64,000 bases of DNA, taken from positions 1 through 64,000 of the IMG/VR virus record IMGVR_UViG_3300036770_002165; one strand, 5' to 3'. The position numbers and the translations under genes are program-made. This DNA is from a virus. The notes below the pieces were generated by a model. The model did not search any database. It was given only the letters and a program-made list of their open reading frames with translations, and was not told where the DNA came from. Positions 11,445-46,119 of this stretch are shown piece after piece (position 1 is the stretch's first letter; each line of letters opens with the position of its first letter).

Positions 11445-11454
11445 AACATTATGC

Positions 11455-26501: not shown

Positions 26502-26514
26502 AACCCAAGATTAC

Positions 26515-26859: not shown

Positions 26860-26954
26860 TTATCCACAGCCCTTGTGGAAGTTATCCACAGGCTACTCAT
26901 AGTTATCCACAGGCCTAGACCTGGGCCTATGAGTTATCCACAGGGTTATCCACA
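26860..26954 (+). promoter_or_regulatory. Cluster of five perfect co-oriented DnaA boxes (TTATCCACA)
   Basis: Starts at 26860, 26882, 26903, 26934, 26946 in the divergent intergenic region. Confidence 0.85.
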
Positions 26955-27037
26955 GGGCTGTGGCCAGGCCTAACATTAGGTAACGGTCATCGGGAGTTGC
27001 TATCGCCAACCCAACCCATGTTCTAAGGAGGAACATC

Positions 27038-27610: not shown

Positions 27611-27778
27611 CTCTTGGTGACCGTACCTAATCGTTAGGCCACGACCTGGGGGGCTGCCTAGTGGGGATACCTCAACCGACCTAACCAACATGGTTGGGCC
27701 GGGCGTGTGTAGGCAGGGAGCCTGATTGTAAGGCGCTCTTACCTGACCGATAGCGCCCGGCCTAATCATTAGGGACAA

Positions 27779-27809
27779 GACGGGTGCGCGCCGCAACCGG
27801 GCGCCCGTC
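27779..27809 (+). ncRNA. CCGCAAY-loop hairpin, copy 1 (others 29866-29898, 33394-33426; degenerate near 37365-37396 and 44828-44850)
   Basis: 12-13 bp stems with compensatory changes and G.U pairs around a conserved 7-nt loop. Confidence 0.7.
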
Positions 27810-27862
27810 TAATCATTAGGTCGATGTGCTGTGTAGTGTCTCCGGCAGAAACGGAGTACACA

Positions 27863-28520
27863 ATGGACACAATCATCTTCACCGAAGAGGGGCGCGAGTG
27901 CCTGCGTAAGGCCCGTGCCCTTGTTACCGCAGCCGTGCGGGCGGAGAACACCTTCGCCAAGCGCATGACTGTCTTCTCCCTCTTCGCTATGTCGGAGGAG
28001 GAGTTCACGGCGAAAGAGACCGAGCGCGCCTCTGGCCTCGCCCTGTTCACGGGTGAGATCACCACGCTCATCGATGCCCTGACGGGCGATCACTGACCAA
28101 CACAACCCGTCGGAGGCACTCCACAGCACATCGGTCTAACATTAGGTCGTACACTGTCACGGTGGCATCGCCACTATCCTCTGAGGAGGAAGGAGAACCA
28201 CCATGAGCAAAGTGATTAGCGATGCCAAGCGGGCGCTCAACCGAGTGCTCGCTTACGAGCAGAACCAGCATCTCGTCCTGCGTGACGAGGTGGCCCGACA
28301 GATGGAGGCCGCCAACGAGATGGTGCGTCTGGGCAATGCCCTGACCGCCTACCGTGGGCGACTGTCCAAGAAGGCCGTGGTCACCGCTGGTTCCGATCTG
28401 GGATCGATCACCCTCAGCGTCGAGGGTGACGAGACTCTGCTCGAAGAAATCAAGAGGGCCAAGAACGCGGCCTTCCGTCTCGCCAACCGCTTCGCAGCCA
28501 ACGCTGCGGCCAACCTGTAA
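27863..28520 (+). CDS. Two hypothetical early proteins (27863-28096, 28203-28520)
   Basis: RBS GGAG/AAGGAG, biased codon usage. Confidence 0.7.
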
Positions 28521-28567
28521 CTAACCGACAGGCGGTGCCACCATGAGAGTGTACGGCCTAATCATTA

Positions 28568-28666
28568 GGCATTGACTGCCGACGTGGGCAGTCACCTTGG
28601 GCGGGTTACAACGATAGTTGTACTTGAGGGAAACCAGGGTGACTGTCCTCGTGGGCAATCGGTGCC
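28568..28666 (+). ncRNA. 33-bp RNA stem-loop
   Basis: 28568-28600 pairs with 28634-28666 with 3 mismatches and 4 G.U pairs. Confidence 0.7.
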
Positions 28667-28779
28667 CAGCCGCTACGGCGGATTAGTTGCTAGCCAGCGT
28701 GTGCTGACTGGTGAAAGGGTGAGGACAATGTGAGCGCAGCACGCTCAGTCCTGGGCATGACAATGAACATAACTGCCCG

Positions 28780-28854
28780 GCCCCCGTACTCAGATGGGAG
28801 TGACGTCTAATCATTAGACGTTTGTAGGTTCGAATCCTACCGAGGGTGCGACCA
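28780..28854 (+). ncRNA. tRNA-like element with aberrant anticodon arm
   Basis: Perfect T arm GTAGG-TTCGAAT-CCTAC, acceptor 6/7 paired, short D arm CTC/GAG, 9-bp arm GACGTCTAA-TCA-TTAGACGTT. Confidence 0.6.
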
Positions 28855-28974
28855 TCAAATGGTGCGAGGAGGGACAACAATCTCCCTTCGGTGTCAATGG
28901 GGCCTCACCAGCCGTGAATGGTTCGACCTGGGTATGTCGTAAAACTGCCCACCCTAATCATTAGTCACTAGGAG

Positions 28975-31204
28975 GTGACAGTAATGACACTGGAAGAGAT
29001 CAAAGAGTTCATCTCTCTTCTGGAGAGTGAGACTCCGACCGATCACTTCGGCTGGTTGCGTCTTCGAAAAGACGTCCTGACCTGCCGTGTGTGGTTGGAT
29101 CAGGTGCCACCGCCGACACCTGTGTGTTGGGCAGAGGTCGACCTCGAACGCATCCTCGCCAAGGCGAATGCGGCAATCACGGGGAAGGCAGCCTCTCGGT
29201 GGAGCGGGCTGTGCCTCGGCCACCACTAACCACTAGGGAGAAACCAAATGGGTGACAAACTCAGAGACGAAACGCTGGACGATGTGCCCTTGTGGCGCAT
29301 CCAGTGTGTCAAGGGCAAGGCTGGCGATGGTGGCGTCGTAGTGAACACGATCTACGCCACGAAGAAGTGGGAGCGTGTACAGCATGTACTGGACGATCAC
29401 TTCGACAACCCTGACCCACGGAAAGAGTCGTATTACCTTCGAGTCACACGACTCGTGGCGATCGACCAAGAAGAGTTCCCGCTGGGAACCTAATCATTAG
29501 GGAGGAAATCATGGCAGACAAGGTACTTGTCAGCACGACAGTGCTTCGCATGGTCGACAGTGCTCTGGCGAAGTACGAGAACCACTTCGCCAACTGTTTG
29601 GACACCATCTCAGAGGTGAAGTTCAAACTCCTGTCAGATCCGGGGGCAACCCTGGTGATGAAGGCAGCCAACATCAGAGAGGGCGACCTGATCCACGAAC
29701 GAGAGTCGGTCATGTCGGTCAGGGCGCTCGTTCAGGATGCGCTCAACCAAGAGGCTGAGTGGGAGCCGTACTACACACGGTGAGACTTTGGGAGTTGCCC
29801 GACCCCAGCGCAAGCGAAGGGCGCACTGCTCACCCCCAGCAGTAGCGACCATCGGGCAAGATCTGGGACGGCGGTGCGCCGCAACCGTGCCGCCGTCCAG
29901 ATGCGCCTAATACTAGGCGTACCCAACAAACAGAAAGGAGGCCACCGTGGCCTTTACTGTTCGAAAGCCCGTCAAGGGCTCGGGAAAGTACCCTGTGTGG
30001 GCTCAAGGTATCACGCAGGACATGGATCTCCTCCAGCGGGAGATCCTGTACACGCTCAAGTTGTTGGAGCGTGGGCGTAAGGCGGTGGTTCGCCAGTGAA
30101 CCGCCGCAGACAGAAGCGCCTAATCACTAGCCTGGCGCACCGGCTCCGTCGCCTGATGGAGCAAGAGGAAGCATACGGCGACGAACTCTCCGTCGTGGAG
30201 ATGTCGTCGTTCTACTCAACCATTCAGGCGGTGGCGTTTGCCATTGCCCGTGGTGACGAACGCAAGGCCGAGCAGTTCATCATGGCGGTCGAAATGGAGG
30301 CCCGAGTATGGGAATGATCGTCGGACTCATCGGGCTGCTGTTCTTCAGTTTCCTGCTCACCGGCCTAATCGTTAGGCTGCCCCAGATGTTCAGGGACTTC
30401 CAGGAAGTCCGTGACCGCTGGGACGATGACTCCTTCTGGGACGACGACTACCGCAAGGAGTTGTAATGCAGGAAGACTTCATCAAGACCTTCGGGCCTTG
30501 TGTTGTCATTCTCCATGGTCCGTCAATGGAAAAGCATTACGGGCCATTTGAGTCTGGCAAACAAGCGATCGAATGGATGAACCATCAAATCATCGTCGGT
30601 AATGTTCGCAACTTCTCTGTTGATCGGTTGCGTACACCGTACGTTGAGAGAGCCTACGATGACTGGTGGGCAGGCGACTGGCACCAGATCAACATCGTGG
30701 ATCAGGAGTACCCCAAGGACTCCTGGGTCAAGACCAAGCGCCGAGTCTGGCGACGCTGGCGGCGTCAGGCAGACAAGGTGTTGGAACAACTCGTCTAATC
30801 ATTAGACAGAAGGGAGCACCGTGAACATCAAGGTGTCACGCACAGGGCTAATCGACGCCCTCAAGAAGTCGATCAAGACTCGTGAGGCTGCTATTGCCGA
30901 ACAAGAGAAGGCTCACAAGGAGTTCGAGAAGGCTCAGAAGGAGTACGAGGATAAGGTCCTCGCTTACGTCACCTCTGGCAAGGCGACCAACCCCAAGTTG
31001 TTCGTCCGATACGACGGTGAAGCCACTGTGACTGTCGAACTTCCTGCGGCCCTCAAGAAGGGCCCCAAGCAGAAGGATGTGCGCAGGTACTACAGCGTCC
31101 ACGAGATCCAGGAGATCAAGTCGGCTATCGCCCTGCTCGAACTGTCCGATGAGGACACCATCTCTGCGTCTGCGTACAAGAACGTGGCGCAGTACCTCGC
31201 CTAA
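28975..31204 (+). CDS. Run of small early hypothetical genes (28975-29229, 29248-29493, 29511-29783, 29947-30099, 30096-30317, 30308-30466, 30466-30798, 30821-31204)
   Basis: RBS or translational coupling for each; 29947 and 30308 ORFs read manually, the latter has an N-terminal TM helix. Confidence 0.65.
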
Positions 31205-31271
31205 TCATTAGGCAACCACAGGGGGTGCGCATCTCACACGCACACAACAGCAACAAACGAAAGGGGTCTCA

Positions 31272-31982
31272 GTGACCATTACAGAAACTTTGCCGCAGTG
31301 CTGGCAAGACGTGGCAGACGCAGTGGCTGCTGGTATCAAGAACATCATCCTGTACGGGCCTCCTGGTACAGGCAAGACGTTCACCGGCATCCACTTCGAG
31401 ACCAACCAGCCAGCACAGCGTGTCGTCTGTAACGAGGACATGACTGCGGCTGACGTGACCGGGTGCTATTTCCCCGGCCCCGACAACCAGTTCGTCTGGA
31501 ACGACGGTGCCGTGCTCAAGGCATGGAAGACGGGTGCTCGTGTCGTGGCTGACGAGATCGACCGTGCGTCTGGTGACGTGCTGTCTCTCTTGCTTGCCAT
31601 GTTCGACTCGCCCGAGTCAGCATCGTGGACCCACCCGTCCACTGGTGAGATCTTCCGTCCGCACGCTGAGTTCAGCGTGTTCATGACCACCAACGTGGAG
31701 GACATGGACGAGTTGCCCACGGCACTCAAGGATCGCTTCCCTGTTGCGATCCGCATCAACCAGCCGCATCCGACTGCTCTGCTGTCGTTGTCGCCTGACC
31801 TCCGTCAGGCTGCCAGCCTCAGTGCTGACCGTCGTGGTGAGCAGCGCATCTCCATGCGTACCTGGAAGGCCTTCGACCAGATGCGCAAGTCCCTCGATGA
31901 CGAGCGTGCTGCCGCTCTCATCTTCCGTGACATGGCTGTCGACGTGCTCGACGCCATTCGCATCAACGCAGTCACCGCCTAA
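31272..31982 (+). CDS. MoxR/CbbQ-like AAA+ ATPase (pair 1)
   Basis: GPPGTGKT, VVADEIDRA, FMTTN, LPTALKDRF. Confidence 0.9.
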   Translation: MTITETLPQCWQDVADAVAAGIKNIILYGPPGTGKTFTGIHFETNQPAQRVVCNEDMTAADVTGCYFPGPDNQFVWNDGAVLKAWKTGARVVADEIDRASGDVLSLLLAMFDSPESASWTHPSTGEIFRPHAEFSVFMTTNVEDMDELPTALKDRFPVAIRINQPHPTALLSLSPDLRQAASLSADRRGEQRISMRTWKAFDQMRKSLDDERAAALIFRDMAVDVLDAIRINAVTA

Positions 31983-32010
31983 TCATTAGGCCAAACAGAA
32001 AGGGGTCATC

Positions 32011-33387
32011 ATGACCAACGGCTCGGCTTATCCCGAGTTCCAGGAGCGTGATGACGTAGAGGTCGGTACGTGGGATGTTCGCCCGTCGATCACCCCACGT
32101 ACCGACTTGGTTAACCGCATCATGGCAGTGCCTCTTGGTACTGACCCCAACTCACGTGCGATCCGTAACCGTGAGACGATGCGTGCCAAAGTAAGTCCTC
32201 AGGAACTTTACATTCCTATTGACTTGCCTCCGTCATTTCCTCTCATGGATGCTTGCGAGACTGTGCGTCTCAACGCACTGCTCAAGCACCAGGGCGTAAC
32301 ACACGATGCTGACAGCATCGACGCACGTGGTCTGTCTGCCATGGTCGATCGTGCCCTTGCTAGTCGTGACGTCAACACTCTTGTTGACCTAACGATTAGG
32401 CACTACGGCACCAAGGCTGGTAAGTCAGTGTCTCGTGCGATCAAGGATGCGTCTGACAAGCATGGGCTGCCCCAGGCCAACGAGTACTTCAAGGGTCTGC
32501 GTAGGGTTCTACGTGACAACTGTGGTAACTGGTCATACAGCTACTACCGGCGTTACTTGTCCGACAATGACCCGTCATCTTTGGCATCGCACGGGCACGA
32601 TGATGTGGTAACGATACCTCACGGTTATCGCTACACCACTGGGCTTGCTGCTGCTGTCAATCGTTTCCTCGAACGTGGTGCCGATCCGACTGCCGAGGTC
32701 AAGCCCAACGAGGTTCCTGGTGATCTCCCCGAGGCTGGTGACATGCCCACCGACTTCGCACCACTCAGGCTTCAGCATCTGCCCAAGCCTGAGCGTGTCG
32801 CTGGTCGTATGGGTCGCAAGCGTTCGGCTACCAACATCGGTGTCAATCCACGCCGTATCCACCGCTACCTGGTTGATCCTGAGAAGCGCATCTTCGACCG
32901 CCGCATCCGTGGCATTGGTGGTGTCGTTCTCATCGACCAGTCTGGCTCGATGCATCTCAGTACCGACGAGATCTGGGACATCATCAACGCCAGCCCTGGT
33001 GCCACCATCATCGGCTACAGCCACAGCGATGGTGCCCCGCACAACTGCTGGGTGCTTGCTGAGAACGGCAAGGTAGTCAGCGAGGTGCGTGACGGCAACG
33101 GTGGTAACGGTGTCGACGGCCCTGCCTTGCTGTACGCTCTCAGCAAGCGCAAGAAGGGTGACCCACTCGTCTGGGTGTGCGACGGCCACGTCACTGGTCG
33201 TTACGACCTACACACTCGTGAGTTGGCCAAGTGGTGTGCTCAGGTAGTCTCCAAGTACAACGTCCACATGTGTGAGGACGTGCCCGAGGCTGTCGAAGCA
33301 CTCAAGCAGGTGCGTGACGGGCGCAAGTTGCCTATGCGTATGGTCGGCGCAGTCAAGTCTGCTGGCCTCAGGCTCGCACACGCCTAA
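32011..33387 (+). CDS. vWA-domain partner of AAA+ (pair 1)
   Basis: MIDAS LIDQSGSM, GGNGVDGPAL, VWVCDG. Confidence 0.8.
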   Translation: MTNGSAYPEFQERDDVEVGTWDVRPSITPRTDLVNRIMAVPLGTDPNSRAIRNRETMRAKVSPQELYIPIDLPPSFPLMDACETVRLNALLKHQGVTHDADSIDARGLSAMVDRALASRDVNTLVDLTIRHYGTKAGKSVSRAIKDASDKHGLPQANEYFKGLRRVLRDNCGNWSYSYYRRYLSDNDPSSLASHGHDDVVTIPHGYRYTTGLAAAVNRFLERGADPTAEVKPNEVPGDLPEAGDMPTDFAPLRLQHLPKPERVAGRMGRKRSATNIGVNPRRIHRYLVDPEKRIFDRRIRGIGGVVLIDQSGSMHLSTDEIWDIINASPGATIIGYSHSDGAPHNCWVLAENGKVVSEVRDGNGGNGVDGPALLYALSKRKKGDPLVWVCDGHVTGRYDLHTRELAKWCAQVVSKYNVHMCEDVPEAVEALKQVRDGRKLPMRMVGAVKSAGLRLAHA

Positions 33388-33452
33388 TGGTTAGGACGGG
33401 CGTACGCCGCAATCGTGCGCCCGTCCAGCCCTAACAACCAAGGAGGGACAGT

Positions 33453-34676
33453 ATGTCCGTCACACAAGGTATGCCCAACGGCGTGCTCGTTTACCTGGAT
33501 AACGAAACAGGTAACTGGGTCATGTCGGTCAACAGATTCGTCAAGAAGAAGATTGACGCAGAGCAGCGTGCTGAACTCCTTCAGCAGGCTAAGGAGTTTC
33601 TCCGTGAAGCACAGAGCCAGGGTTTCCCAGTCGTTGATCCTGACGACGATGACGCAATCTCCGAGCGTATCCCGTCGATTGGCGAAGAAGTCGAAGGACT
33701 TGAGTCACTCAATCGGGTCCTCGAAGGTGGTCTTGAAGAGGCGGCGTCGATCCTCCCTAACCTCTGGGATTGGCTCGTCGGTATCACCGAAACGCCGTGG
33801 CAGCCCGACGAGGACTAATGATTAGGAGGGCTTAGATGCCTCTTAGCCCACAGTTCGCAGACCTTAACAAAGGTCTAGAACAAACACTCACCACACAAAT
33901 CAAAAACAGTGTGGACGAAATGTTGTCGATGACTGCTGGTCACCAGATAGTCTCGGCATCAGAAATGGCCGACAAGTTGCTTGACCTACGCATCCTTGTC
34001 AGCCAACTAGAACACCAAGGAGAACCACATGGTGACGATTGACGATGTGTGGAAGCACATCAGCAACAAGATTGCGAACAAGGTAAACGACCCGTTTGCT
34101 GAGTTGTTCGCAATGGTGATCCCCGTCGATACAGAGGGCAACTTCTGTAAGGAGATCAACTCGGACTGCGAGGAGTACGAGGGCGATAGTTACACGCTCC
34201 TTCGCAAGTTGAGTAAGACCACTGAACTCCTGCCCAGCGGGACGTTTGCGTATGCCTGCCCGGCTAAGATTAGGCAGGTTGATCTGGCTGGGCGAAACGC
34301 CGATGAGATCGACGCCGAGGAGTTGGAGGAGTTGCGAGCCAGCACGACTCCCACTCAGGTGCTGATGATCAACCTCGTCCATGCGGTCGAGGCTAAGGAC
34401 GACGGCCATCCTGGTGACATGGTCATCGAGAGCGGCGTCTACTACATCGATGAGAACCGTTTCGAGGCGTTGCCCACGCTGGTAAACGGTTCCGACGACC
34501 AGGGGCAGGACAGCAAGGGCCCGCTGACCATTGCTCTTGGTGCTCTCGCACTTGCGTGGGCACTCAGTAACGACAGGCTTGGTGACGTGGGTCGAATGCT
34601 CAAGGAGTCATTGGACCTGGCCAAGAAGTCGTTGGAACAGGCAGAAGCAGCTTTCAACAATCTGCCGAAGCCCTAA
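33453..34676 (+). CDS. Three hypothetical acidic proteins (33453-33818, 33836-34042, 34029-34676)
   Basis: ORFs with RBS. Confidence 0.65.
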
Positions 34677-34692
34677 TCATTAGGAGGCAACA

Positions 34693-35103
34693 TTGCATTC
34701 CAACATCTCGATGCTAGTTATATTCCCTAACGGCATCGTTGCAGTTCCTGAGGAGTACATGCCTGAGGACACACCCATGCACGAGGTCATCAACGCACAA
34801 GTCGGAGGCCACTTCGACTCTGTGCGTCCGATGCGTCGTGAACAGAAGTTCATTGGCTATGTCAATGACGAGGGATTGCTTATGGGTCTTGAGCCTAACG
34901 CTCTTGCCAGCGCAGTCTTCGGACGGTTCCTTGCGGGGCCGTGCGTCATCGTTGGTACAGCCAATGAGTTCGGGGAAGAGAACGGTGAGGATTACAACCT
35001 CATGGATAACGATCTCGACCTCATCATGCGCATGGCACAGCCACTTCTTATGTGGCGTGACAGCGTTGACCAGCAGAAACAAATTGAACAACTGAGAGGA
35101 TGA
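34693..35103 (+). CDS. DUF3846-like protein
   Basis: QVGGHFD..GYVNDEGLLMGLEPNALAS..LAGPCVIVG. Confidence 0.65.
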   Translation: MHSNISMLVIFPNGIVAVPEEYMPEDTPMHEVINAQVGGHFDSVRPMRREQKFIGYVNDEGLLMGLEPNALASAVFGRFLAGPCVIVGTANEFGEENGEDYNLMDNDLDLIMRMAQPLLMWRDSVDQQKQIEQLRG

Positions 35104-35104
35104 C

Positions 35105-35578
35105 ATGAACCTTTCCATGGAGATTGCCGAGTGGGTCAACAAAGACCTGCGTGAGTCAATCGACGAGACGCTGCGTTACCGAGCCACCCGCTTGTTCGCA
35201 GTTAACAAGACAGCCAACGGATACGAGCGTCGCCTCGTGGACTCCGACCCTGATCCGTACGATCTGATCAGGCGGCTGCCCAAGCCTGACAAGGTGGATG
35301 CCTACTGCCTCGTCATGACTGGGTGGATGACTCCCATCGCTGATGGTGACGACGACGAGCAGATCAACAGCCCGTACAACGACGAGCGTGTGCGTGTGCG
35401 TCTCTGCGCCGCTGTGTCCGACGCTGGTGTGTCGGTGCGTGTACAGCGTTGGGTCAACGGTTACCCGGAGGGTGACTCGTTCGAAGATGGGGGCGAGGGT
35501 TCTTTCCCCGATGCTCTCCGTCTGTGGTGGGACGCCACGCAAGGGCGTAACAACCTGTTCGAACTGATGGGTGACTGA
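35105..35578 (+). CDS. Hypothetical protein
   Basis: 157 aa ORF with RBS. Confidence 0.65.
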   Translation: MNLSMEIAEWVNKDLRESIDETLRYRATRLFAVNKTANGYERRLVDSDPDPYDLIRRLPKPDKVDAYCLVMTGWMTPIADGDDDEQINSPYNDERVRVRLCAAVSDAGVSVRVQRWVNGYPEGDSFEDGGEGSFPDALRLWWDATQGRNNLFELMGD

Positions 35579-36039
35579 TGTTCCGTAAGACCATTATCGC
35601 CCTCTCTGTTGCTGGTGGGCTAATGGTTAGTGCGTGTGGGGGTGAGACTGTGTACGTCACGGTCTCACCCTCCACTACGGAGCCAGCCTCAACTACAACG
35701 GTGCGTAAGACAACCACGACGTTGGCTACCACGCCACCGTTGGCCACCCGCCCACCATCAAACGTAAGCACGTATGACCCCGATGCTTACGACACTTTCC
35801 TTTGGTCAAGTGTTCGTGACTTCTGGTGGTTGTTCACTGAAGAACAGCTGCTCCAGATGGGCCTGCTTGTCTGCGAGGAGTTCGATCGTGGGTCAACTCT
35901 CGACCAGGTCACCATGGCTTTGGTGGAGGTTCTTAACGACAGCAATACGGCGTACCTAGCCGAGGGTATGGCTGCGGTTACCGCTGGCGCTCTGACCTAC
36001 TTGTGCCCCGAGCACAGTTGGTGGCTTAGCACCATCTAA
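35578..36039 (+). CDS. Lipoprotein, DUF732-like
   Basis: Lipobox VSAC, Thr/Pro linker, G..VC..FDRG and A.TYLCPEH. Confidence 0.7.
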   Translation: MFRKTIIALSVAGGLMVSACGGETVYVTVSPSTTEPASTTTVRKTTTTLATTPPLATRPPSNVSTYDPDAYDTFLWSSVRDFWWLFTEEQLLQMGLLVCEEFDRGSTLDQVTMALVEVLNDSNTAYLAEGMAAVTAGALTYLCPEHSWWLSTI

Positions 36040-36056
36040 TCACTAGGAAGGATCAC

Positions 36057-36830: not shown

Positions 36831-37123
36831 TGATCCCTGAGAACATTGAAGATCTGAGCGAGATCGAGTTGGCTGCTTTGTTGCGACCACTCAATCCGCA
36901 CCAGAAAGACATACTCAAGCGACGCCTCGGCCTAGCTGGGTATGAGAAACAAACCTTGCAAGAGGTTGCAGACAACATCGGCAAGGATGTAGATTACGTC
37001 CGCTTGATGGAAGTCAAGGCAATGGTTGACCTCGGTTGGGTCAACCTCGTCAAGAAAGTTGAGAACCACAATGAAGCCATACTTGAACACCCAAGTAACC
37101 GTTCAGTTCCAGCGACTGAGTGA
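36830..37123 (+). CDS. Stand-alone sigma-70 region 4 HTH protein
   Basis: LNPHQKDILKRRLGL....QTLQEVADNIG....YVRLMEVKAM matches sigma r4 consensus. Confidence 0.75.
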   Translation: MIPENIEDLSEIELAALLRPLNPHQKDILKRRLGLAGYEKQTLQEVADNIGKDVDYVRLMEVKAMVDLGWVNLVKKVENHNEAILEHPSNRSVPATE

Positions 37124-37423
37124 AACACCCATTACTCCTGAGTGTCGCACCATTAACGAAGGTGAGGACAACGAATTCCACATCTTCCAGTTTAATGTTG
37201 AAGAAACTCTTCCTCACAAGGTTCAGTTCTTCTTCAATACCACTCAGGAGTTCATCAACTTCCTCAACGATCTTCGCAGTACATGCGAGAACAAGATCTG
37301 GGATCTGACGGCAATGCCGAGCGAGTACGAGTACGACTACGCTCGTGAGCCGTTCTGACCCCCAGACAACCCGGCGTCGCAATCGTGCCGCCGTCCAATC
37401 CACACACAAGTAGGAGAACCCCT

Positions 37424-38221
37424 ATGCGTACCTCTGTTCAGAGGGTTACGCCAGACATGGCACGGACCATGCTGGCAACAAACACCAAGAACCGCAAGCT
37501 GCGGCGTGCGCGTATCAACCAGTACGCCGAGCAGATGAAGCGTGGCCAGTGGCAGGCTACCGGGGAGGCGATCAAGTTCGCCAAGGACGGTACTCTGCTC
37601 GATGGTCAGCACCGTCTCCATGCGGTTATCGAAGCCAACGTTGAACTCGACATGCTCGTGGTGCAGGACCTCGACTTGTCGACGTTCAAGGTCATCGACT
37701 CGGGCCTTACCCGCACTCCGGGTGATGCCCTCCAGTTGATGGGGATCAGCAACAGCAACCATAAGGCTGCTGCTATCCGCATGTACATCGCTGCTGATGC
37801 TCAGATTCCGATTGACAAGAGCACTGCACTGACCAACCTCATCACCCGCACCGATATCACCAATTTCGTTGCTGTTAACGATGATCTGGTCAACGATGCT
37901 GTTAACGCAGCCCGTACCGTGTACAACAACTGTCGGGGTAACCGCCCCGCTTGGGCTGCTCTGTACATGATGATCACCAAGAAGTACGGACAGGCTGAGG
38001 CCGAGATGTTCTTCCAGTCAGTTGCGGAGGGTACGAATATGTCCCCTGGTGACCCGCGTCTTGCCCTGCGCAACTGGGCGGTTCGCAACACCAGCAACCC
38101 GTACCGTGGCGAGCATCTGTATGCGTACTGCCGTGCCTACAACGCTCACCGAGCGGGTGACAACATGCACTTGCTGCGTCTTCCTATCCCGGCGCATCGC
38201 AAGCCTCCCGTCGTCGACTGA
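37424..38221 (+). CDS. ParB-like N-terminal (DGQHR) domain protein
   Basis: VTPDMARTML..N..NR, MKRGQW..TGEAI, LLDGQHRLHAVI; start 37424 after AGGAG. Confidence 0.7.
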   Translation: MRTSVQRVTPDMARTMLATNTKNRKLRRARINQYAEQMKRGQWQATGEAIKFAKDGTLLDGQHRLHAVIEANVELDMLVVQDLDLSTFKVIDSGLTRTPGDALQLMGISNSNHKAAAIRMYIAADAQIPIDKSTALTNLITRTDITNFVAVNDDLVNDAVNAARTVYNNCRGNRPAWAALYMMITKKYGQAEAEMFFQSVAEGTNMSPGDPRLALRNWAVRNTSNPYRGEHLYAYCRAYNAHRAGDNMHLLRLPIPAHRKPPVVD

Positions 38222-39033
38222 TGGACGGGTTCCGTATCACCGAGTCGACAGCTGACTTCTACTGGCAGATCATCCATGATCATCCGGAGGAGTTCAAACT
38301 GGGGCTCGTTGAATCACAGTTGTCGACCGGGGTCACCTACAATGGTGACCCCGAGTCGGCACAATCAATCGCATATGACTTTGGCCGTACTTTCGGTGAA
38401 GCGATGCACGCCCTGTGGGAGAACCTAGATATGGATCACCCACTGTGGAACGACGACGCTTACTGCGATCATGGCCCGAGTGTCTACGAGAGCTATTGCC
38501 CCAAATGCACAGGACAAGAGGATGCCTGAATTTCACGTTTCATCTAAGCGAATTGTCTACACAAAATTCGCTGCACTAGCACTGACAATCTTGCTCGCCG
38601 GGCGTATCATGCTCAGCGACCCCAACGTGGTGTACCGGTACATCGGTACTCTTGCGTTCATCGGATTCAACATCCGAGCCATGATGTTGGCCGTGTACAT
38701 CCAGTACCGTGGTAAGCACGGTTGGGGTAGTACGGTTGATATCCCAGATAATCATTAGGAGAACCACCAATGAGAGCTAACCCGTACGTACTTACCTTTG
38801 ACGACGGTGCAGACGGTGGCCCAGAGCATTTGTTGTGGGTACTCACCGGTTTCTACTGCAAGTTCATGAAGCAAGGCGAGTTGGTATTCGAAGGGGTTAT
38901 CAAGGAGGTGGAGAGCTCCTTGGGGGAGGTACTAGTAGAGATACCCATTGACGAGAGGCCTGACCTAAGCGGCCCAGATCGTCGCCGCCTACTTGACATC
39001 TACGAAGACTTTGACGAAGTGATCTACCAATGA
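38221..39033 (+). CDS. Three small hypothetical proteins (38221-38529, 38522-38758 membrane, 38770-39033)
   Basis: Coupled ORFs. Confidence 0.55.
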
Positions 39034-39042
39034 GGACCACAA

Positions 39043-40482
39043 ATGCTTACGTTGCCAACTCTGGCTGTACCACTTCTAGCGCACCAGCAGGAGGCGGTGC
39101 AGTTCGTACTTGACCATCAGCAGGCTTACCTAGCATTAGATATGGGGTTAGGTAAGACAGCCTGTGCCATAGGAGTTGTGGAGTCTGCTCGTGTTATCGG
39201 GCAGACTCCTGCTCTTCTGGTAGTGCCCCCGTCGTTGCGTACGACGTGGATCAAGGAGTTGCAGAAGTTCGCTCCGCATCTCAAAGTGTTTGTAATCAAG
39301 GGTATGGAGACATACCCATTACCACCTGCTGATGTGTACATCATCGGTGACTCCGTGATCCGTAGTTGGGTAGACAAGGACGACCCCCACTCGCTACGGC
39401 ACCAGATCAAAGTGCTAGTCGTTGACGAGGCCCACCGTGTTAAGAACATGGGCTCTAGTCGTACTCGTGCTGTCATCGAGCTAGCCAAGACGATCCCTGG
39501 TTTCAAGATCCTCATGTCCGGTACCCCTACTCCTAACGGTAGGAACATGGAGATGGGTTCGCAGATCGAGATCCTCGGGGCGTCTGCCTGGGCCGCTGTC
39601 GGTGGTAAGGGTAAGTTCTGGAACTACTACTGCCCCGTGGAGCGTGACGACAAGGGTCGCCTTAACCGTTACGGTAAGCGTGCCAACATCGATTCACTTG
39701 GTCTGCACGAGGCAATGACAGGCTCGTTTATGATGCGCCGACGACGTGAGGAAGTGCTAAACCTGCCACACAAGGGTAGATCAGCAATTCATATCGAAGG
39801 ACGTGGTAAGGCTGTAAGTGATTACATCCTTGCCGAAGAAGATCTTGTTGCGTATCTAGCTGGCGAGGGGTTGCCATTCCGTGCCGCTATGCGCAACGAG
39901 GCACTCGTCAAGCTAACCACCATGCGGCGGTTGGCTGGCGAGTGCAAAGTTCGTGGTGTTATCGACCACGTGAAAGAGCTGCTCGTTGAGACGGCGCACG
40001 ACGATGTACCCATGGGTATCTTTATCGTTGCTGAGCACCACTCGGTGATGAGCCCCATCGCTGAGGGCCTTGACAAGTACGGCGTGGTCATGTACAACGG
40101 AACAATGGGGGATAAGGAGAAAGCATCAGCCGTGGAGGACTTCACGTCTGGTGCCGCTCGGGTCATGGTTGGCCAGATCAAGTCGGCGGGTGTCGGCCTG
40201 ACACTCCATGGTGATGGTCGTAACCACCGTGTCATTATCGCCCAACTACCTTGGTCACCTGCAGATATCCAGCAGGCCGAGGACAGGCTGCATCGCATCG
40301 GGCAAACATCCGATGTTGAAGTAGAGATCTGCCTTTCCAGCATCGACAACTCATGGACAGTAGATGAACGTCTGTGGGGATTGCTAGAGGGCAAAGCATT
40401 CTCAGCTAGTGAACTCATCGATGGTAAGGGTGAGTTCTTACTAGAGGAGATACAAGACAGCATCATTGATTCTTACAGATAA
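39043..40482 (+). CDS. SNF2-family (SMARCAL1/HARP-like) helicase/ATPase
   Basis: DMGLGKT, VVDEAH, MSGTP, AGVGLTL, QAEDRLHRIGQ. Confidence 0.9.
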   Translation: MLTLPTLAVPLLAHQQEAVQFVLDHQQAYLALDMGLGKTACAIGVVESARVIGQTPALLVVPPSLRTTWIKELQKFAPHLKVFVIKGMETYPLPPADVYIIGDSVIRSWVDKDDPHSLRHQIKVLVVDEAHRVKNMGSSRTRAVIELAKTIPGFKILMSGTPTPNGRNMEMGSQIEILGASAWAAVGGKGKFWNYYCPVERDDKGRLNRYGKRANIDSLGLHEAMTGSFMMRRRREEVLNLPHKGRSAIHIEGRGKAVSDYILAEEDLVAYLAGEGLPFRAAMRNEALVKLTTMRRLAGECKVRGVIDHVKELLVETAHDDVPMGIFIVAEHHSVMSPIAEGLDKYGVVMYNGTMGDKEKASAVEDFTSGAARVMVGQIKSAGVGLTLHGDGRNHRVIIAQLPWSPADIQQAEDRLHRIGQTSDVEVEICLSSIDNSWTVDERLWGLLEGKAFSASELIDGKGEFLLEEIQDSIIDSYR

Positions 40483-40760
40483 GGAGAGATATGCCCATTA
40501 TCAAATCATCAACAAACGGAGATGACATTACAGTTGTTGTCTTCTCCAAGGAGGAGGCCGAAGCCTTCGTAAACATGATGTGGAATGCATCTTTCAAGAA
40601 GAGCAAGGATGTTAAGGAATCTATCGAAAAGCTAGAAGAAATGTTCTATGCATTCGGTATTCCTTACCCTCCTGAGTGACGAAGGTCACAAAAATAATCC
40701 CACAACTTTCCTGTCTTATGGATAGGATGAACCTCAACCACCAACTGAAAGGAACCACCA

Positions 40761-41966
40761 ATGGTTGCAGCCAAAGCCCTCCGTGAGGGCATGGAAGTAG
40801 TCATCAACTCCGGGCCCTACACCGGACTGATAGCACGGGTCATCGATCCCACCGTCTTCCCCGACGGGCACCCCGACCAGCGCAAGATCCGTGTTGATAT
40901 CGCTGGTGTCGGTGAGACGCTGATCATTCCCAAGCAGCTCAGCATCACCGGCATGGCCCCCGTGGTGCACAGCGCACCAACTGTGGTTGCCAGTACTGCA
41001 CCAGTGCACGTGCCAACCGTGGCCGTGTCCAAAACGCCTATCACATCTCTTGACGATCCTGCCCTTGACCGTTGGCGTCCACAGCGTGCCAGCGTTGTCA
41101 AGGAGTACGTATCTCGAGAGTTGCCTGGCGGTATCAAAGATGTCGATGCGCTAGTCAAGTACTGGCGTGACGACCGCATCGATGGGTACGCCCCTAACAT
41201 CGGCCTGGTTGGTGACACCCAGTCCGGTAAAACAATGCTGGTTGAGGTTCTCGCCCACCTTGTGGCCAAGGAGATGGGGTTGTCTAAGCCCTTGCCGATC
41301 TTCTTGCTCGCCGGTAACAGCGCCATTACCGACCACGATATGTTCGGCCAATACCGTCCTGACGACACGGGTCAACTCGTGTGGATGGAGGGTGTGGTTG
41401 CCCTAGCCGCACGCATCGGCGGAATCCTGTATCTCGACGAGGTCAACGCAATGCCTGGTGCAGTCACCGCGGCTTTGCACCCGTTAGCTGACGATAGACA
41501 CCAGTTCGTTAACATCCGTAAGCCTGTCGATGACGGGCACGGTGGCATGATGCCTGATGTTGTCAAGGCATCTACTGACCTGTGGATCATGTCGACGTAC
41601 AACCCTGGCTATGCCGGTATGAGCAAGGCTAACGAAGCATTCCTCGCACGGTTCCGCTGGTTGCAGTGGAACTACGACGAGGAAGTTGAGAAGAAGTTGA
41701 TCAAGTCGCCTGGTGTCAGGTTGCTTGGCCAGTCTCTCCGCAACGCCCGTGAGGGTCGTGCTATCTCAACACCGGTGGGCACATCCGCACTGCAGCGTCT
41801 TGAGCGTGACATCGCCATGTTCGGCGTTGAGTACGCACTCTGGTCGTTCTGCGGGCAGTTCACCAGTAAGGCCGAGCGCACTGTTGTCGAAACCCTAATC
41901 GAAGACCGAAGCATCCGGCTCATGATTACCACAGAAGTCGAGGGGACAGTTAAGGAGCAAGCATGA
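40761..41966 (+). CDS. MoxR/CobS-like AAA+ ATPase (pair 2) with N-terminal KOW/SH3-like extension
   Basis: GDTQSGKT, LYLDEVN, STYNPGYAG, NEAFLARF. Confidence 0.9.
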   Translation: MVAAKALREGMEVVINSGPYTGLIARVIDPTVFPDGHPDQRKIRVDIAGVGETLIIPKQLSITGMAPVVHSAPTVVASTAPVHVPTVAVSKTPITSLDDPALDRWRPQRASVVKEYVSRELPGGIKDVDALVKYWRDDRIDGYAPNIGLVGDTQSGKTMLVEVLAHLVAKEMGLSKPLPIFLLAGNSAITDHDMFGQYRPDDTGQLVWMEGVVALAARIGGILYLDEVNAMPGAVTAALHPLADDRHQFVNIRKPVDDGHGGMMPDVVKASTDLWIMSTYNPGYAGMSKANEAFLARFRWLQWNYDEEVEKKLIKSPGVRLLGQSLRNAREGRAISTPVGTSALQRLERDIAMFGVEYALWSFCGQFTSKAERTVVETLIEDRSIRLMITTEVEGTVKEQA

Positions 41967-43894
41967 CAGACATTGATGAGCCCCAGGAAGTAGTGCCCGG
42001 AGTAATGACCCGCAAGGAGTTACAGAACTCACGATCTAGGCTACGTAACTGGATCACACGAGATGCTGCTAACTCTGAGAAGCGTGCTCGTAACCTCGCG
42101 GCACAGCTGCTAGCAACTGCGGATAACAACTACCTTCACCGCTCCCGTAACGAGAGGATGAAGTCAGACGCGCTAATCAATAGCGTTAGCAATCTGGCTA
42201 GCCGAGTGCTAGTGAGTATGAACGTTACAGCACGGGTTAAAGTGTCCCACGGGTCGGCTAAGTACTCCGGTAGGGCTGTTCAAGCTTACACGGACTTTGA
42301 CACGATTAACATTCAGGTTGATCCATCGTCGTTTAACACCAGCAGCATTGAGAGCGTGTCTGAGCTAATCCACGTAATCAAAGGCCTTGTGTACCACGAG
42401 GGTGGGCATATCGCATGGACTACGCCGATGTCATCGTTGTGTGACAGGATTGGGTGCAGCCGTAACCACGATATCGATGGTAAGCAGTACCCGTTGGTGT
42501 ATATGCAGCAGTCGTGGAACGTTCTTGAAGATCAGCGTATGGAACGCGCCATGGTTGTTACCTCTCCGATCATGGCTAAGTACTTCACGAGTATCGTTGC
42601 GAAGTATGCCATTGACCCGCAGCTTCCTGGCCTAGCTTGGCCGTGGCTTGTTGGCCGTACGTATTTGCCAAAGGAATTGCGGCGTGCTGTACGAGCCGAG
42701 GCTGAGCGCATGGAGGCTGCCCACCTTATACCGAGGATGGAGTCCGCTATCTTGGCTTACTGCAATGCCAGCGATGCCAGGACAATGCACGATGCTGTTA
42801 TCGAGATGCACATCTGTCTTATGGAATGGCTTTCTTCCAACAACGGCAAGATCAGCGAGGTTGACCGTCACTCTGGCCTTTTCAAAGATGACAAGCGCAG
42901 TTCACAGGAAATGCCAGTTCCCCCAACGCCAATGGAACCAGACGACAACGGTGATTCAAGCGAGGGGGGCAGCCCGTCTGACGACGCTGGTGAGGACACG
43001 CAGGAGAAAGACGAGAACGACGGTGACTCAGATAGTGATAAGGATTCCACCGACAAGTCGGCGGGTGATGGTGTTAGTGATAAATCGATCAAGGAACAGC
43101 TTGAGCAGATCGTAAACCAGAACATCAGTTCAACCAACATTAACGAGGTTAATGAAGTTATGGCTGATATCAACACCAGCCAGGGAATGATGGCTATTCG
43201 TGACGACACAATCAAGCAGATGAATAACACTGAGGTAACACTGAGCACCGAAGTCCGTAACCGTATGCTTGATGTGCTTGACCGCTTGGTTGTTCAAGTA
43301 GATCCGTCTTGGATGTTCTATCGGGAGAACGGTGTGCTAGACCCCACCGCCTACACGACACGTGAGCCTGGTGACATGAACTTCTGGTCAGGCATGGATG
43401 GGGATAAGGGCAACGGCCATGATCTCGCTGTGTCTCTGCTTATCGACTCATCAGGGTCGATGGGCAATGAGATCGAGAACGTCAGCATCATGGCTATGGG
43501 TATCCGTAAGGCGTGCGAGCATTACGATATCCCCTGCACTATCACCACGTTCTCTGAGGACGTACGCTTAGTTGCTGCCGGTGACGAAGAATGCGGGTTT
43601 GTCAAGGTAGAAGCTGGCGGTGGTACGCAAGTGTTCGATGCCATGACCATCCTTGATGACCAGCGTTACGGTAAGCATAACCACCTCGTAGTCATCCTTA
43701 CGGATGGTGAATGGAGCGACCTAAAGGACGTGCGTATCTGGGGTAAACCAACGCGCCACATCATGATCGTCGGGTACAACGTAGATCATTCAATCATTGC
43801 TGATAAGGGCGCTAATAGCGCCATTACCATTAGCAATATCAACGAGCTAGCGCCGCTAGTCACAAACTCCCTGGCTGGGTATTTCGGTAGCTAG
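41963..43894 (+). CDS. CobT-like HExxH metallopeptidase-acidic linker-vWA protein (pair 2)
   Basis: YHEGGH, WNVLEDQRME, D/E/S-rich linker, LIDSSGSM, GGT, ILTDG. Confidence 0.85.
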   Translation: MTDIDEPQEVVPGVMTRKELQNSRSRLRNWITRDAANSEKRARNLAAQLLATADNNYLHRSRNERMKSDALINSVSNLASRVLVSMNVTARVKVSHGSAKYSGRAVQAYTDFDTINIQVDPSSFNTSSIESVSELIHVIKGLVYHEGGHIAWTTPMSSLCDRIGCSRNHDIDGKQYPLVYMQQSWNVLEDQRMERAMVVTSPIMAKYFTSIVAKYAIDPQLPGLAWPWLVGRTYLPKELRRAVRAEAERMEAAHLIPRMESAILAYCNASDARTMHDAVIEMHICLMEWLSSNNGKISEVDRHSGLFKDDKRSSQEMPVPPTPMEPDDNGDSSEGGSPSDDAGEDTQEKDENDGDSDSDKDSTDKSAGDGVSDKSIKEQLEQIVNQNISSTNINEVNEVMADINTSQGMMAIRDDTIKQMNNTEVTLSTEVRNRMLDVLDRLVVQVDPSWMFYRENGVLDPTAYTTREPGDMNFWSGMDGDKGNGHDLAVSLLIDSSGSMGNEIENVSIMAMGIRKACEHYDIPCTITTFSEDVRLVAAGDEECGFVKVEAGGGTQVFDAMTILDDQRYGKHNHLVVILTDGEWSDLKDVRIWGKPTRHIMIVGYNVDHSIIADKGANSAITISNINELAPLVTNSLAGYFGS

Positions 43895-43922
43895 GTTGTA
43901 GCAACAATAAACACAAGGTAGG

Positions 43923-44291
43923 GTGAACCACATGGACCACAACATTGAGAACCAAATCAGAGAGTTTCTGCAGATCAGAGACGCAATCAAGACATTTGAG
44001 CCCAAGCTCAAAGACCTTGAAAACCAACTGAAGCAGTACATGACAGACAACGAGATCAAGAAGATCACCGTCGATGGACGGACCATCACCTTGGTTTCGT
44101 CGCCTGGTGTACGTAACTTCAATGCCGAAGAACTGCAGAAGCTCATCTCCGCAGCAGTGTTCAAGCAAGTCACAGAACCTAAGGTCAAGACAGAACTTCT
44201 TGATGCTGCTGTAAGTCTCGGCAAGATCCCCCAGGATGTTGTCGATCAAGTAACAACAAAAACCCCCTACAACCAGTTGCGAGTCAACTAG
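43923..44291 (+). CDS. Coiled-coil hypothetical protein
   Basis: 122 aa ORF; weak resemblance to Gam-like phage proteins, unverified. Confidence 0.55.
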   Translation: MNHMDHNIENQIREFLQIRDAIKTFEPKLKDLENQLKQYMTDNEIKKITVDGRTITLVSSPGVRNFNAEELQKLISAAVFKQVTEPKVKTELLDAAVSLGKIPQDVVDQVTTKTPYNQLRVN

Positions 44292-44300
44292 GAGATAACA

Positions 44301-44675
44301 ATGAAAACCATCAAGAGTAGTACGTACAACCTCAACCCCCGCGATCTTGACCTCAAGACTCTGGTTACCCTGGTTGCTGAGGGTTACGTCGAGAGTGACA
44401 TCGCAATCGTCCTCATGGCACGAGCCTCAAACGTAGACGAGGGTGCCCTCGCCAACGCTCTCCGCAAGGTCCCCAAGGCTGTCCGTAAGGCCACCAAGTG
44501 GACCGTCGAAGAGGAGCAGATCATCATCAAGATGTGGAACGAGGGTAAGACCGCTCGTCAGATCGGGGAGATCATGGGCCGCACCGCTGGTTCCGTTGGT
44601 CTCCGTATCAACCACTTGCGTAGCGCAGGCCACGAGCTCGTCTCGCACGAGGCTGGCCGCCGCAAGCAGGCGTAA
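44301..44675 (+). CDS. GcrA/Myb-like HTH protein
   Basis: WTVEEEQIIIKMWNEGKTARQIGEIMGRTAGSV. Confidence 0.7.
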   Translation: MKTIKSSTYNLNPRDLDLKTLVTLVAEGYVESDIAIVLMARASNVDEGALANALRKVPKAVRKATKWTVEEEQIIIKMWNEGKTARQIGEIMGRTAGSVGLRINHLRSAGHELVSHEAGRRKQA

Positions 44676-44683
44676 GGAGAGTA

Positions 44684-44817
44684 AGCCGGAGCCTTCAGGA
44701 ACCTTAGTAGGGGTAAGCGTGGTCATTCGCTCCCCTGTCTCCTTTCACCTGAAGGAACTCTCCTCCCTCCCATCCCTATTTCGTTGCTGTTGCGGGGATG
44801 GGAGGGTGAGTCCGGTT
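44684..44817 (+). ncRNA. Multi-helix structured RNA candidate
   Basis: AGCCGGA/TCCGGTT closing stem, CCTTCAGG/CCTGAAGG, AGGGG..AGCG/CGCTCCCCT, CCCTCCCATCCC/GGGATGGGAGGG. Confidence 0.6.
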
Positions 44818-44862
44818 AGACTCCACACCAGCGCAATCGTGGCGCTGTCCAAGGAGGTCTAT

Positions 44863-46109: not shown

Positions 46110-46119
46110 GAGAACCACC

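Follow-up and report, generated by a model that had tools for sequence, protein, structure and literature searches.

This work reports a repeated stem-loop in the early gene block of an uncultured 95.6-kb myophage; the element is real, and compensatory changes in sister phages have kept it. In all likelihood it belongs to a familiar class of RNA punctuation signals, and it marks recombination joints as well. More specifically, though still tentatively, we propose that the sense-strand RNA stem-loop may serve as an 'I-shaped' (U-tract-less) terminator or attenuator, or as a 3′-end protector, and that together with a junction palindrome it may form a recombination cassette.

The hairpin family and its genomic setting

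The window, that is, the whole 64,000-nt stretch of DNA analysed, comes from a genome whose largest ORF (1082 aa) encodes a tail fibre; a 734-aa ORF at 55785-57989 was assigned no identity. Because two WhiB genes are encoded, and with DUF732 as a further indication, an actinobacterium is supported as the host. For the ParB-like and helicase proteins, all relatives are remote (<35% identity) and come chiefly from actinophages, and when the early block was compared with 50,697 phage records by megablast, no match resulted.

Five copies of the element, three intact and two reduced to the 3′ half, lie on the + strand in gaps of the sole rightward (early) gene block, each 12-53 nt upstream of a start codon (Table 1); the first-pass annotation had placed all five sequences correctly and had rightly called them intergenic and 5′ of genes. 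A promoter/terminator scan of this block found no canonical terminators and few sigma-70-like promoters, and nothing at any of the copies. The intact copies, 33 nt each and 81-84% alike in a repeat search, are one family, each member folding into a stem of 12-13 bp capped by the 7-nt loop CCGCAAY (−23.9, −29.1, and −30.8 kcal/mol), and a covariance model run over the whole 95.6-kb genome found exactly these three, all on the + strand. Their G.U pairs (T7.G27 in copy 1, T10.G24 and G11.T23 in copy 2, and T10.G24 in copy 3) would be A.C mismatches on the opposite strand, in agreement with the earlier remark that they work on the sense strand only. A canonical (L-shaped) intrinsic terminator was rejected, as the hairpin is present but the T run is absent after every copy. 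The first reading was right about the missing U tract, but its step from there to 'not ordinary terminators' does not hold, since U-tract-less hairpins within 50 bp of stop codons have been described as the main intrinsic terminator form in actinobacteria (PMC12288462).

Table 1. Stem-loop copies and neighbouring palindromes, with positions in the window
Feature	Position	Strand	Covariance score (bits)	Remarks
Hairpin copy 1	27778-27810	+	49.1	12 pairs, one G-G mismatch, one G.U; loop CCGCAAC; in the 252-nt gap from gene 27038-27610 to gene 27863-28096
Hairpin copy 2	29866-29898	+	52.2	13 pairs, two G.U among them; loop CCGCAAC; stem extendable to 29861-29903
Hairpin copy 3 (site D)	33394-33426	+	51.4	13 pairs, one G.U among them; loop CCGCAAT; begins 6 nt past the vWA-like gene (32011-33387; stop codon included), with 26 nt between its end and the ATG at 33453
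Copy 4, 3′ half alone	37378-37396	+		28 nt 5′ of the ParB-like gene (37424-38221)
Copy 5, 3′ half alone	44832-44850	+		immediately next to the ribosome-binding site for the HNH endonuclease (gene 44863-45333)
13-bp palindrome, CTAA-N3-TTAG core	27761-27773			immediately 5′ of copy 1
Palindrome	27808-27820			shares three bases (27808-27810) with the 3′ end of copy 1
Imperfect 12-nt palindrome	29906-29917			7 nt past copy 2
Palindrome	33383-33395			TAA is the stop of the vWA-like gene; last two G open copy 3
Palindrome array	27626-35631			16 CTAA-N3-TTAG, mostly at gene junctions

Covariation and distribution

In the alignment of copies, 96.6% of cells are paired and five of the 13 pairs are altered on both sides; none of 500 shuffles reached the covariation score, and slid controls were paired at 34-58%. 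As far as the aligned copies go, this shows base pairing, and compensatory changes in the 5′ arm show that it is under selection; that the stems differ by compensatory changes had been noticed at first reading. At site D, which is positionally conserved, the stem survives in three lineages although one pair has been exchanged on both sides in a compensatory way and several others have changed by way of G.U, and at one site shared by the relatives G001 and G002 the inner stem is wholly replaced with its complementarity retained.

The suggested covariance-model and Rfam checks, when run, returned covariation and a hairpin confined to three related uncultured phage lineages, with none in 185,579 prokaryote genomes, and an empty Rfam result (0 matches at the gathering score over the whole window, and 0 at E<=1 over 26400-45000). 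An exact-pattern scan of metagenomes gave 43 loci, seven of them true hairpins with complementary inner arms, and all seven belong to relatives of this phage. The 22 loci that the same scan gave in prokaryote genomes were all chance matches within genes, leaving neither a host copy nor a clue to the host.

The vWA-like gene follows an ATPase gene, and relatives were reached through an alignment of two ATPase sequences, after the vWA-like protein alone (tblastn and pattern scan) had found none. In 20 of 20 related loci, a hairpin of 12-20 bp starts 2-16 nt past the vWA-like stop. These hairpins have lineage-specific sequences and no U-tract, their tails holding on average 1.3 T in 8 nt and, over 15 nt, 35% C and 18% T; they contain 34 G.U pairs in total, and the sense strand is the more stable one in 17 of the 20. 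Because the site D relatives carry unrelated hairpin sequences, structure outweighs the CCGCAAY loop, and the conserved loop noticed at first reading is not required there.

These comparisons bear on a rather unlikely alternative, wherein a protein reads the RNA sequence-specifically, recognising its conserved stem base together with the GCAA-type loop and the 3′ flank, either as a nut/boxB-like antitermination loading site or as a processing site for RNase III, or for RNase E plus a hairpin. The GACGG/CCGTC base is invariant in nine distinct copies from three lineages, with A18, A19, G22, and G24 also conserved, the loops carry GCAA or GTAA and are thus GNRA-type, and an A followed by a C/A-rich single-stranded stretch stands 3′ of most copies. 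Copy 2 is identical in 33 of 33 nt to a copy in G001, between genomes only ~70% alike in coding DNA and with unrelated flanks. Such a reader is possible, since the stem base and the 3′ half outlast the conservation of the flanking DNA by far; the co-occurrence with a clade-specific palindrome hints at clade-specific trans factors, and the repeated intercistronic hairpins at the early RNase III sites of T7 offer a precedent. However, distant relatives use unrelated hairpins and loops at the orthologous site, the loop varies within the clade (7, 4, 5, and 9 nt), the stem has 13 bp versus 5 bp in boxB, no Rfam family fits even at E<=1, and the scan of early proteins recognised none as N-like, Q-like, or an RNase. 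The proposal of a protein-recognised RNA made at first reading therefore keeps its sense-strand pairing and its link to the palindrome, but loses the loop, which is dispensable at site D. Its nut/put likeness yielded nothing specific, and a nut-like antiterminator is conjectural.

Copies of the 3′ half

Both degenerate copies reported earlier retain the 19-nt 3′ half. Copy 4 folds in another register (5+3 pairs, −14.4 kcal/mol), and copy 5 forms a small 5-6 bp hairpin, also shifted in register. A degenerate 19-nt consensus, derived from the window copies at 29880, 33408, 37378, and 44832 and hence circular for those four, matched at <=1 mismatch there only, all on the + strand; the − strand gave 0 matches, as did 30 random genomes drawn from a first-order Markov model; beyond these four places, this shows no further copies.

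Retention of the 3′ half could also be read at the DNA level: loop and 3′ arm might be a phage-specific promoter or activator site for the downstream gene, served by a phage factor, for example the Sigma70_r4-only small protein encoded at 36830-37123, with the 5′ arm merely adding an upstream terminator as in PeSL (promoter-early stem-loop) cassettes. The orthologous position of the half copies before the ParB-like and HNH genes is consistent with this, since the half motif is kept before the ParB-like gene in G001 and G002, where the ParB-like proteins are merely 39% identical; the HNH arrangement also recurs in G001, with HNH proteins 91% identical. The copies are, moreover, all co-oriented with transcription at short distances from start codons, recognisable sigma-70-type promoters are absent from the early block, and the PeSL stem-loop overlaps its promoter (PMC2839356). 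We nevertheless consider a promoter improbable, as no −10-like TANNNT lies in or after the motif in the gaps of copies 2-4, the only TANNNT in the gap of copy 5 (44817) is upstream of the motif, the HNH copy ends right at the ribosome-binding site and leaves no room for a downstream start site, and compensatory 5′-arm changes point to selection on pairing. No phage RNA polymerase was found either, the T7-like search giving no match, though its control was silent too; a T7-like promoter was set aside with that result, and an ECF-type −35/−10 reading of the 3′ half was rejected on its spacing, which by eye is ~8 nt between AAC and CGTC versus 16-17 nt separating −35 from −10 in promoters of ECF-type alternative sigma factors.

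Junction palindrome and mosaic joints

The CTAA-N3-TTAG core occurs 16 times in the window versus 0.57 expected, always inside an array (27627-35630) that does not reach beyond the initial ~8 kb of the early block, a part where many genes have no known relatives; the early genes at 27038-31204 have none in G001 or L074. The palindrome's TAA is the upstream gene's stop codon at 29491, 31202, 31980, 33385, 33816, and 34674. Its adjacency to the intact hairpins, already noticed at first, takes a different form at each: on both sides of copy 1, overlapping copy 3, and imperfect near copy 2. Palindrome and hairpin family are found together in one set of three lineages, whereas all 11 of the more distant relatives that were checked lack them, and in L049 and L074 the hairpin is likewise flanked by palindromes as copy 1 is. 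One CTAA-N3-TTAG stem-loop is the anticodon arm of a tRNA-like gene at 28780-28849. The 'tRNA-SeC' called by ARAGORN had no Rfam match.

Where related phages differ by an insertion, deletion or replacement, the hairpin sits at the joint. Downstream of it G001 and G002 are identical, but upstream they are unrelated, and L093, compared with G001, is without a small-ORF cassette that hairpin and palindrome bound. Such breakpoints might also be expected of a DNA-level or selfish element without a role in expression, whether a replication or recombination hairpin, a cruciform, or a palindrome-targeting mobile unit, and the two palindromes around copy 1, repeated in L049 and L074, resemble a target duplication, while identical copies occur in diverged genomes and a half copy is carried by an HNH homing endonuclease. 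We regard this as very unlikely, because G.U pairs and strand asymmetry suit RNA but not duplex DNA, every copy is oriented with transcription, a genome holds only three intact copies, no transposase or RAYT-like (REP-associated tyrosine transposase) gene was seen among the proteins scanned, and site D evolves vertically with compensatory changes. A further, likewise very unlikely reading would make palindrome and hairpin a clade-specific intergenic RNA code with phage-encoded reader(s), a novel type of post-transcriptional timing or counter-defence circuit and not a terminator, in which one trans-acting protein or nuclease would bind the same stem-loop in a decoy tRNA and at every early junction, and the adjacent GACGG hairpin would load or block that factor.

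Discussion

Based on these findings, we propose that the three intact copies are paralogous stem-loops formed in the + strand RNA of the early rightward operon, standing between cistrons and, at one site, just past the stop of the ATPase/vWA gene pair. First, the likeliest role of the hairpin on the early transcript is that of an 'I-shaped' terminator or attenuator, and/or of a shield for the upstream message, whose 3′ end it would protect once the C-rich leader beyond has been cleaved; by either route, it would determine how much of the upstream cistrons is made relative to the downstream ones. Second, what counts would be the structure, the shared sequence comprising the GACGG/CCGTC base, the GCAA-type loop, and the 3′ half, and the sharing among copies may reflect paralogy and repeated exchange. 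Third, we infer that hairpin and CTAA-N3-TTAG could together make up short cassettes, conserved between genes, that serve related phages as places of recombination.

With respect to the I-shaped criterion (<=~50 nt past the stop), copy 3 and all 20 site D hairpins lie within the limit. Against a terminator or protector, copies 1 and 2 are far from the preceding stop codon (167 and 82 nt), stem base, loop, and 3′ half show much more conservation than a generic terminator would call for, and the half copies have no long stem, so that a purely structural role leaves their retention unexplained.

Early gene regulation in actinobacteriophages is poorly understood, and the SAS/ESAS, Cluster O, and Cluster EG motifs have been without an assigned function for more than a decade. 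The present element offers a clean case, with sense-strand pairing, a structural slot held across about 20 lineages, and joints exactly at the element. If it terminates or stabilises transcripts, the copies would be compact natural pieces on which to test whether hairpins without a U-tract terminate in Actinobacteria, a matter of dispute, and the PeSL idea of regulatory cassettes that drive gene shuffling would extend beyond T4-like phages; if a phage factor reads the conserved base and 3′ half, the two would be a new regulatory pair.

Comparison with known systems

N4-type hairpin promoters have a 5-7 bp stem and a 3-nt loop and serve a giant virion RNA polymerase; an N4-like promoter was rejected here, as no giant polymerase is present and a 13-bp stem with a 7-nt loop is the wrong geometry. 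The T7 RNase III sites are stacked helices of ~20 bp with an internal loop, and the cleaved hairpin stabilises the upstream message. Similar hairpins are repeated between early cistrons in both cases, but the present stem has 13 (up to 19) continuous pairs and no internal loop, and cleavage here is hypothetical. In lambda nut, which lies downstream of early promoters, boxB is a 5-bp stem with a GNRA-like pentaloop beside boxA and is bound by an N-type protein, and HK022 put consists of two stem-loops of ~70 nt in total. Like them, the present element is a hairpin of the sense-strand early transcript, has something GNRA-like in its loop, and occurs more than once in a genome; unlike them, it is a single 12-13 bp stem with a 7-nt loop, without an Rfam match or a recognised N-like gene.

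Mycobacteriophages of Cluster K have extended start-associated sequences (ESAS), imperfect 17-bp inverted repeats, and intergenic inverted repeats of 17-18 bp occur in Cluster O mycobacteriophages and in Cluster EG Microbacterium phages (PMC3203893, PMC4351075, PMC7302621). All are, as here, cluster-specific repeated inverted repeats in short gaps 5′ of start codons in actinobacteriophages, and with arms of 7 bp and a spacer of 3 bp the Cluster O repeat is built like the CTAA-N3-TTAG palindrome. However, the sequences are unrelated, and departures in the ESAS arms do not support RNA pairing according to their authors, whereas the compensatory and G.U changes found here do. Unlike the Cluster K start-associated sequence (SAS), no 13-bp motif is shared at the ribosome-binding site, and the distance to the start varies. 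With the 'I-shaped' terminators of mycobacteria and other Actinobacteria, the hairpin shares its GC-richness, the lack of a U-tract, and, at site D, the nearness to the stop (PMC12288462). U-tract-less termination by actinobacterial RNA polymerase is disputed (Czyz et al. 2014, as cited in PMC12288462). The present copies differ in that they form a family of repeats in which stem base, loop, and 3′ half are all conserved, and in that two of the three lie at 82 and 167 nt from the stop.

The PeSL cassettes of T4-type phages are proven terminators and recombination sites (PMC2839356, PMC4122927). They have a consensus sigma-70 promoter and their phages infect Gram-negative hosts, whereas the present element has no sigma-70-type promoter, belongs to a phage of an actinobacterium, is accompanied by a separate 13-bp palindrome at most junctions, and has terminator or promoter activity that is only putative. 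In both, nevertheless, short conserved repeats stand between early genes without known relatives in a myovirus, a stable stem-loop is followed by the ribosome-binding site of the next gene, and the element lies at the insertion/deletion and replacement joints of related phages.

A covarying stem-loop in the early gene block

All five sequences reported by the first-pass annotation were found where it had placed them, and a repeat search joined the three intact copies into a single family. With 12-13 bp stems and a 7-nt CCGCAAY loop, the intact copies rank with the stablest local folds in the early block, and each holds one or two G.U pairs that become A.C on the opposite strand, in agreement with the earlier claim that these pairs work only on the sense strand. 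Copies 4 and 5 retain the loop and the 3′ arm only (19 nt) and fold as short hairpins in a shifted register. A consensus from the window's own copies gave four matches on the plus strand, none on the minus strand and none in random genomes.

Coordinates of the features in the window
Feature	Position	Strand
Glycine-rich and Gly/Thr-type repeats	10265-12224, 22285-22731	-
27-nt period repeat	22494-22731
CTAA-CA-TTAG palindromes	26685, 26971, 28137
TTATCCACA array	26860-26954
12-nt palindrome form	26969-26980
Rightward block	27038-46569
Palindromes CTAA-N3-TTAG	27627-35630
Hairpin copies 1, 2, 3 (intact)	27778-27810, 29866-29898, 33394-33426	+
tRNA-like gene	28780-28849	+
Palindrome copy in its anticodon arm	28806-28818
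Pre-ATPase hairpin	31213-31271
vWA-like gene	32011-33387
Half copies 4, 5	37378-37396, 44832-44850	+
ParB-like gene	37424-38221
Poly-C/poly-G-like hairpin	44763-44806
HNH gene	44863-45333
734-aa ORF	55785-57989	-

The covarying stem proposed earlier is borne out by nine distinct copies, in which 96.6% of cells are paired, 5 of 13 pairs are changed on both sides and the covariation score was reached by no shuffle, these values coming from a small set of sequences that includes paralogues, and from a structure derived from the same sequences tested. As a control, sliding the partner by 1-3 columns lowered pairing to 34-58%. Independent support for the structure is provided by the copy at site D, the slot just after the stop codon of the vWA-like gene, which is orthologous in three lineages and differs among them by one full compensatory change, G.U-mediated steps and a 7-nt loop that becomes a GTAAA loop of 5 nt; by a hairpin of the related genome G002 at the position of the first copy of G001, in which the inner seven pairs are all different and still complementary; and by the distant lineages L052 and L057, which carry repeated hairpins of their own, likewise with compensatory differences. 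The element is real, belongs to the RNA level and is restricted to one clade, and it is likely to be a functional sense-strand RNA stem-loop.

Other hairpins were observed in the same block. One, very stable (-27.4 kcal/mol), with poly-C/poly-G-like arms and no U-tract, stands between the gene at 44301-44675 and the HNH cassette, immediately ahead of half copy 5. A second conserved small hairpin, whose 5-6 bp stem is preceded by a G-rich lead and followed by a C/A-rich tail, lies immediately 5′ of the ATPase gene and has counterparts in G001 (L039, about 715-770) and L093, between which a compensatory change turns T-A into C-G.

Genome, host and relatives

The virus record comprises 95,597 bp, the window being its first 64 kb, and its ends overlap, so that the genome is complete and circularly permuted or terminally repeated. 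It carries a myovirus gene set (tail sheath, baseplate, portal, terminase and major head protein), together with a family-A DNA polymerase, a DnaB-like helicase, a RecA/UvsX-like protein and a DpdA-like transglycosylase. Two WhiB genes and one DUF732 protein are also present, and Corynebacterium was the sole control genome giving a WhiB signal. Because WhiB proteins are, to our knowledge, restricted to Actinobacteria and their phages, the host is an actinobacterium. Gene direction is leftward except for one rightward block, the early block, which begins with many small genes without known relatives, continues with an AAA_5 (MoxR-like) ATPase and its 458-aa vWA-like partner, and later includes a Sigma70_r4-only protein, a ParB-like protein, an SNF2 helicase, a second AAA_5 ATPase and an HNH endonuclease; all hairpin copies are confined to its gaps. 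Elsewhere, the 734-aa ORF of the replication block matched nothing in Pfam, PHROGs or PDB sequences, and the ESM Atlas gave no usable hit for it (pLDDT of its Atlas model, 0.37); the long tandem repeats in structural genes look like those of collagen-like tail fibre or decoration proteins.

No close isolated phage was found. A DNA pattern scan of IMG/VR and then an ATPase-based scan yielded 32 related loci, among them G001, a complete 92.8-kb genome whose genes stand in the same order as here and whose shared genes are about 70% identical in nucleotide sequence. A covariance model was made from eight copies and applied to 660 kb, comprising this genome and its relatives; it found the hairpin in three lineages only, namely this genome with fragments L087 and L113, G001/G002 with L093 and L100, and L049/L074. 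New true copies were returned only from relatives of this phage by an exact-pattern scan of metagenomes and 185,579 prokaryote genomes, the remaining matches lying inside genes with non-complementary inner arms, and an Rfam search, as suggested earlier, gave no match.

A U-tract-less hairpin after the vWA-like gene

The vWA-like gene was located in every relative and the sequence 3′ of its stop codon was folded. A GC-rich hairpin of 12-20 bp starts 2-16 nt past the stop codon in 20 of 20 distinct loci, with lineage-specific sequence and variable loops, often A-rich tetraloops, so the conserved CCGCAAY loop stressed by the first-pass annotation is not needed at this site. These hairpins contain 34 G.U pairs in total, and the sense strand is more stable in 17 of the 20. 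A common hairpin of lineage-specific sequence, combined with this strand bias, indicates that the slot is structural and probably acts in sense-strand RNA.

Almost no T follows the stem (35% C and 18% T in the next 15 nt). The missing U tract had been taken to argue against an ordinary terminator, an argument that fails in an actinobacterial setting, since the literature describes U-tract-less hairpins near stop codons as the main form of intrinsic terminator in mycobacteria, although their activity is contested (PMC12288462 and work cited there). We propose, tentatively, that the hairpin could well serve as a U-tract-less terminator or attenuator, or as a 3′-end protector, within recombining intergenic cassettes.

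About 60-110 nt past the vWA stop codon, a second non-coding element, absent from this genome, is conserved in the distant relatives L052, L053, L056, L067 and L071; it consists of a short hairpin, then a run rich in T and C and a conserved purine-rich segment, and may be a structured leader or small RNA.

Alternative readings of the conserved 3′ half

A plain terminator leaves unexplained the GACGG/CCGTC stem base, invariant within the three-lineage clade, one 33-nt copy identical between two genomes whose flanks there are unrelated, and the persistence of half copies. This genome, G001 and G002 all keep the 3′ half, without the long 5′ arm, ahead of their ParB-like genes, whose proteins are only 39% identical, and it is also kept before the HNH gene. 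This half could be a signal in its own right, a promoter or an RNA binding site serving the gene downstream, or the repeats may have been homogenised by frequent exchange, and both fit the sequences. As explanations of the element, RNA read by a protein is unlikely, a promoter in the 3′ half somewhat less likely still, and a DNA-level or selfish element improbable. The HNH endonuclease is 91% identical to its G001 counterpart (14899-15366), against 39-70% for other early proteins common to both genomes, which points to a recent horizontal spread of this cassette along with its upstream half motif.

The junction palindrome and candidate promoters

The palindrome noted earlier beside the intact hairpins is indeed there, but its extent is far greater than had been seen, with 16 occurrences of CTAA-N3-TTAG against 0.57 expected. 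At six junctions the upstream gene ends on the TAA inside the palindrome. Palindrome and hairpin family occur together, L074 having 21 copies of the palindrome and G001 15 of the symmetric variant CTAG-N3-CTAG, and no enriched palindrome was found in eleven more distant relatives; since this co-occurrence is confined to one clade, it counts as a single evolutionary event. The variants differ by a concerted A>G / T>C change that keeps the symmetry, which is compatible either with binding of the DNA by a dimeric protein or with a small stem in RNA.

The 2-nt-spacer form, CTAA-CA-TTAG, contains TAACAT, an actinobacterial -10 pattern (TANNNT), and two copies, at 26971 and 28137, lie 55-65 nt ahead of rightward genes one and three; such copies may be the actual promoters of the early genes. 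No hexamer of this kind occurs in the more common form with a 3-nt spacer. The DnaA-box consensus TTATCCACA occurs five times, always in one orientation, in the gap between the leftward and rightward blocks, and these copies adjoin, on the upstream side, the 12-nt palindrome form with its -10-like TAACAT; the array may be an origin, or an early promoter under DnaA control. ARAGORN called a 'tRNA-SeC (tca)' in which a palindrome copy with extra flanking pairs makes up the anticodon arm. Rfam tRNA models gave no match to it even at E<=1. Either this is a decoy or mimic resembling a tRNA, or the palindrome seeded a false call.

Exchange at the hairpins and comparison with known systems

G001 and G002 are identical 3′ of the hairpin and unrelated 5′ of it, the break falling within the hairpin; a cassette of small ORFs that in G001 has the hairpin at one end and a palindrome at the other is missing from L093; and the relatives have no counterparts of the genes at 27038-31204. 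These observations are direct evidence of exchange.

Similar inverted repeats of unknown function, likewise repeated and intergenic, are described in Cluster O mycobacteriophages and Cluster EG Microbacterium phages (PMC4351075, PMC7302621). For the hairpin, the comparison is with the promoter-early stem-loops (PeSLs) of T4-type phages, composite stem-loop/promoter cassettes between early genes, for which termination, promoter activity and use as crossover points have all been shown, the crossovers having been mapped to the loop (PMC2839356, PMC4122927). The exchange pattern of the hairpins reported here matches that of the PeSLs, but the defining sigma-70 promoter is absent, and for that reason we do not file the element as a PeSL; by analogy, it would work like a PeSL while standing outside that family.
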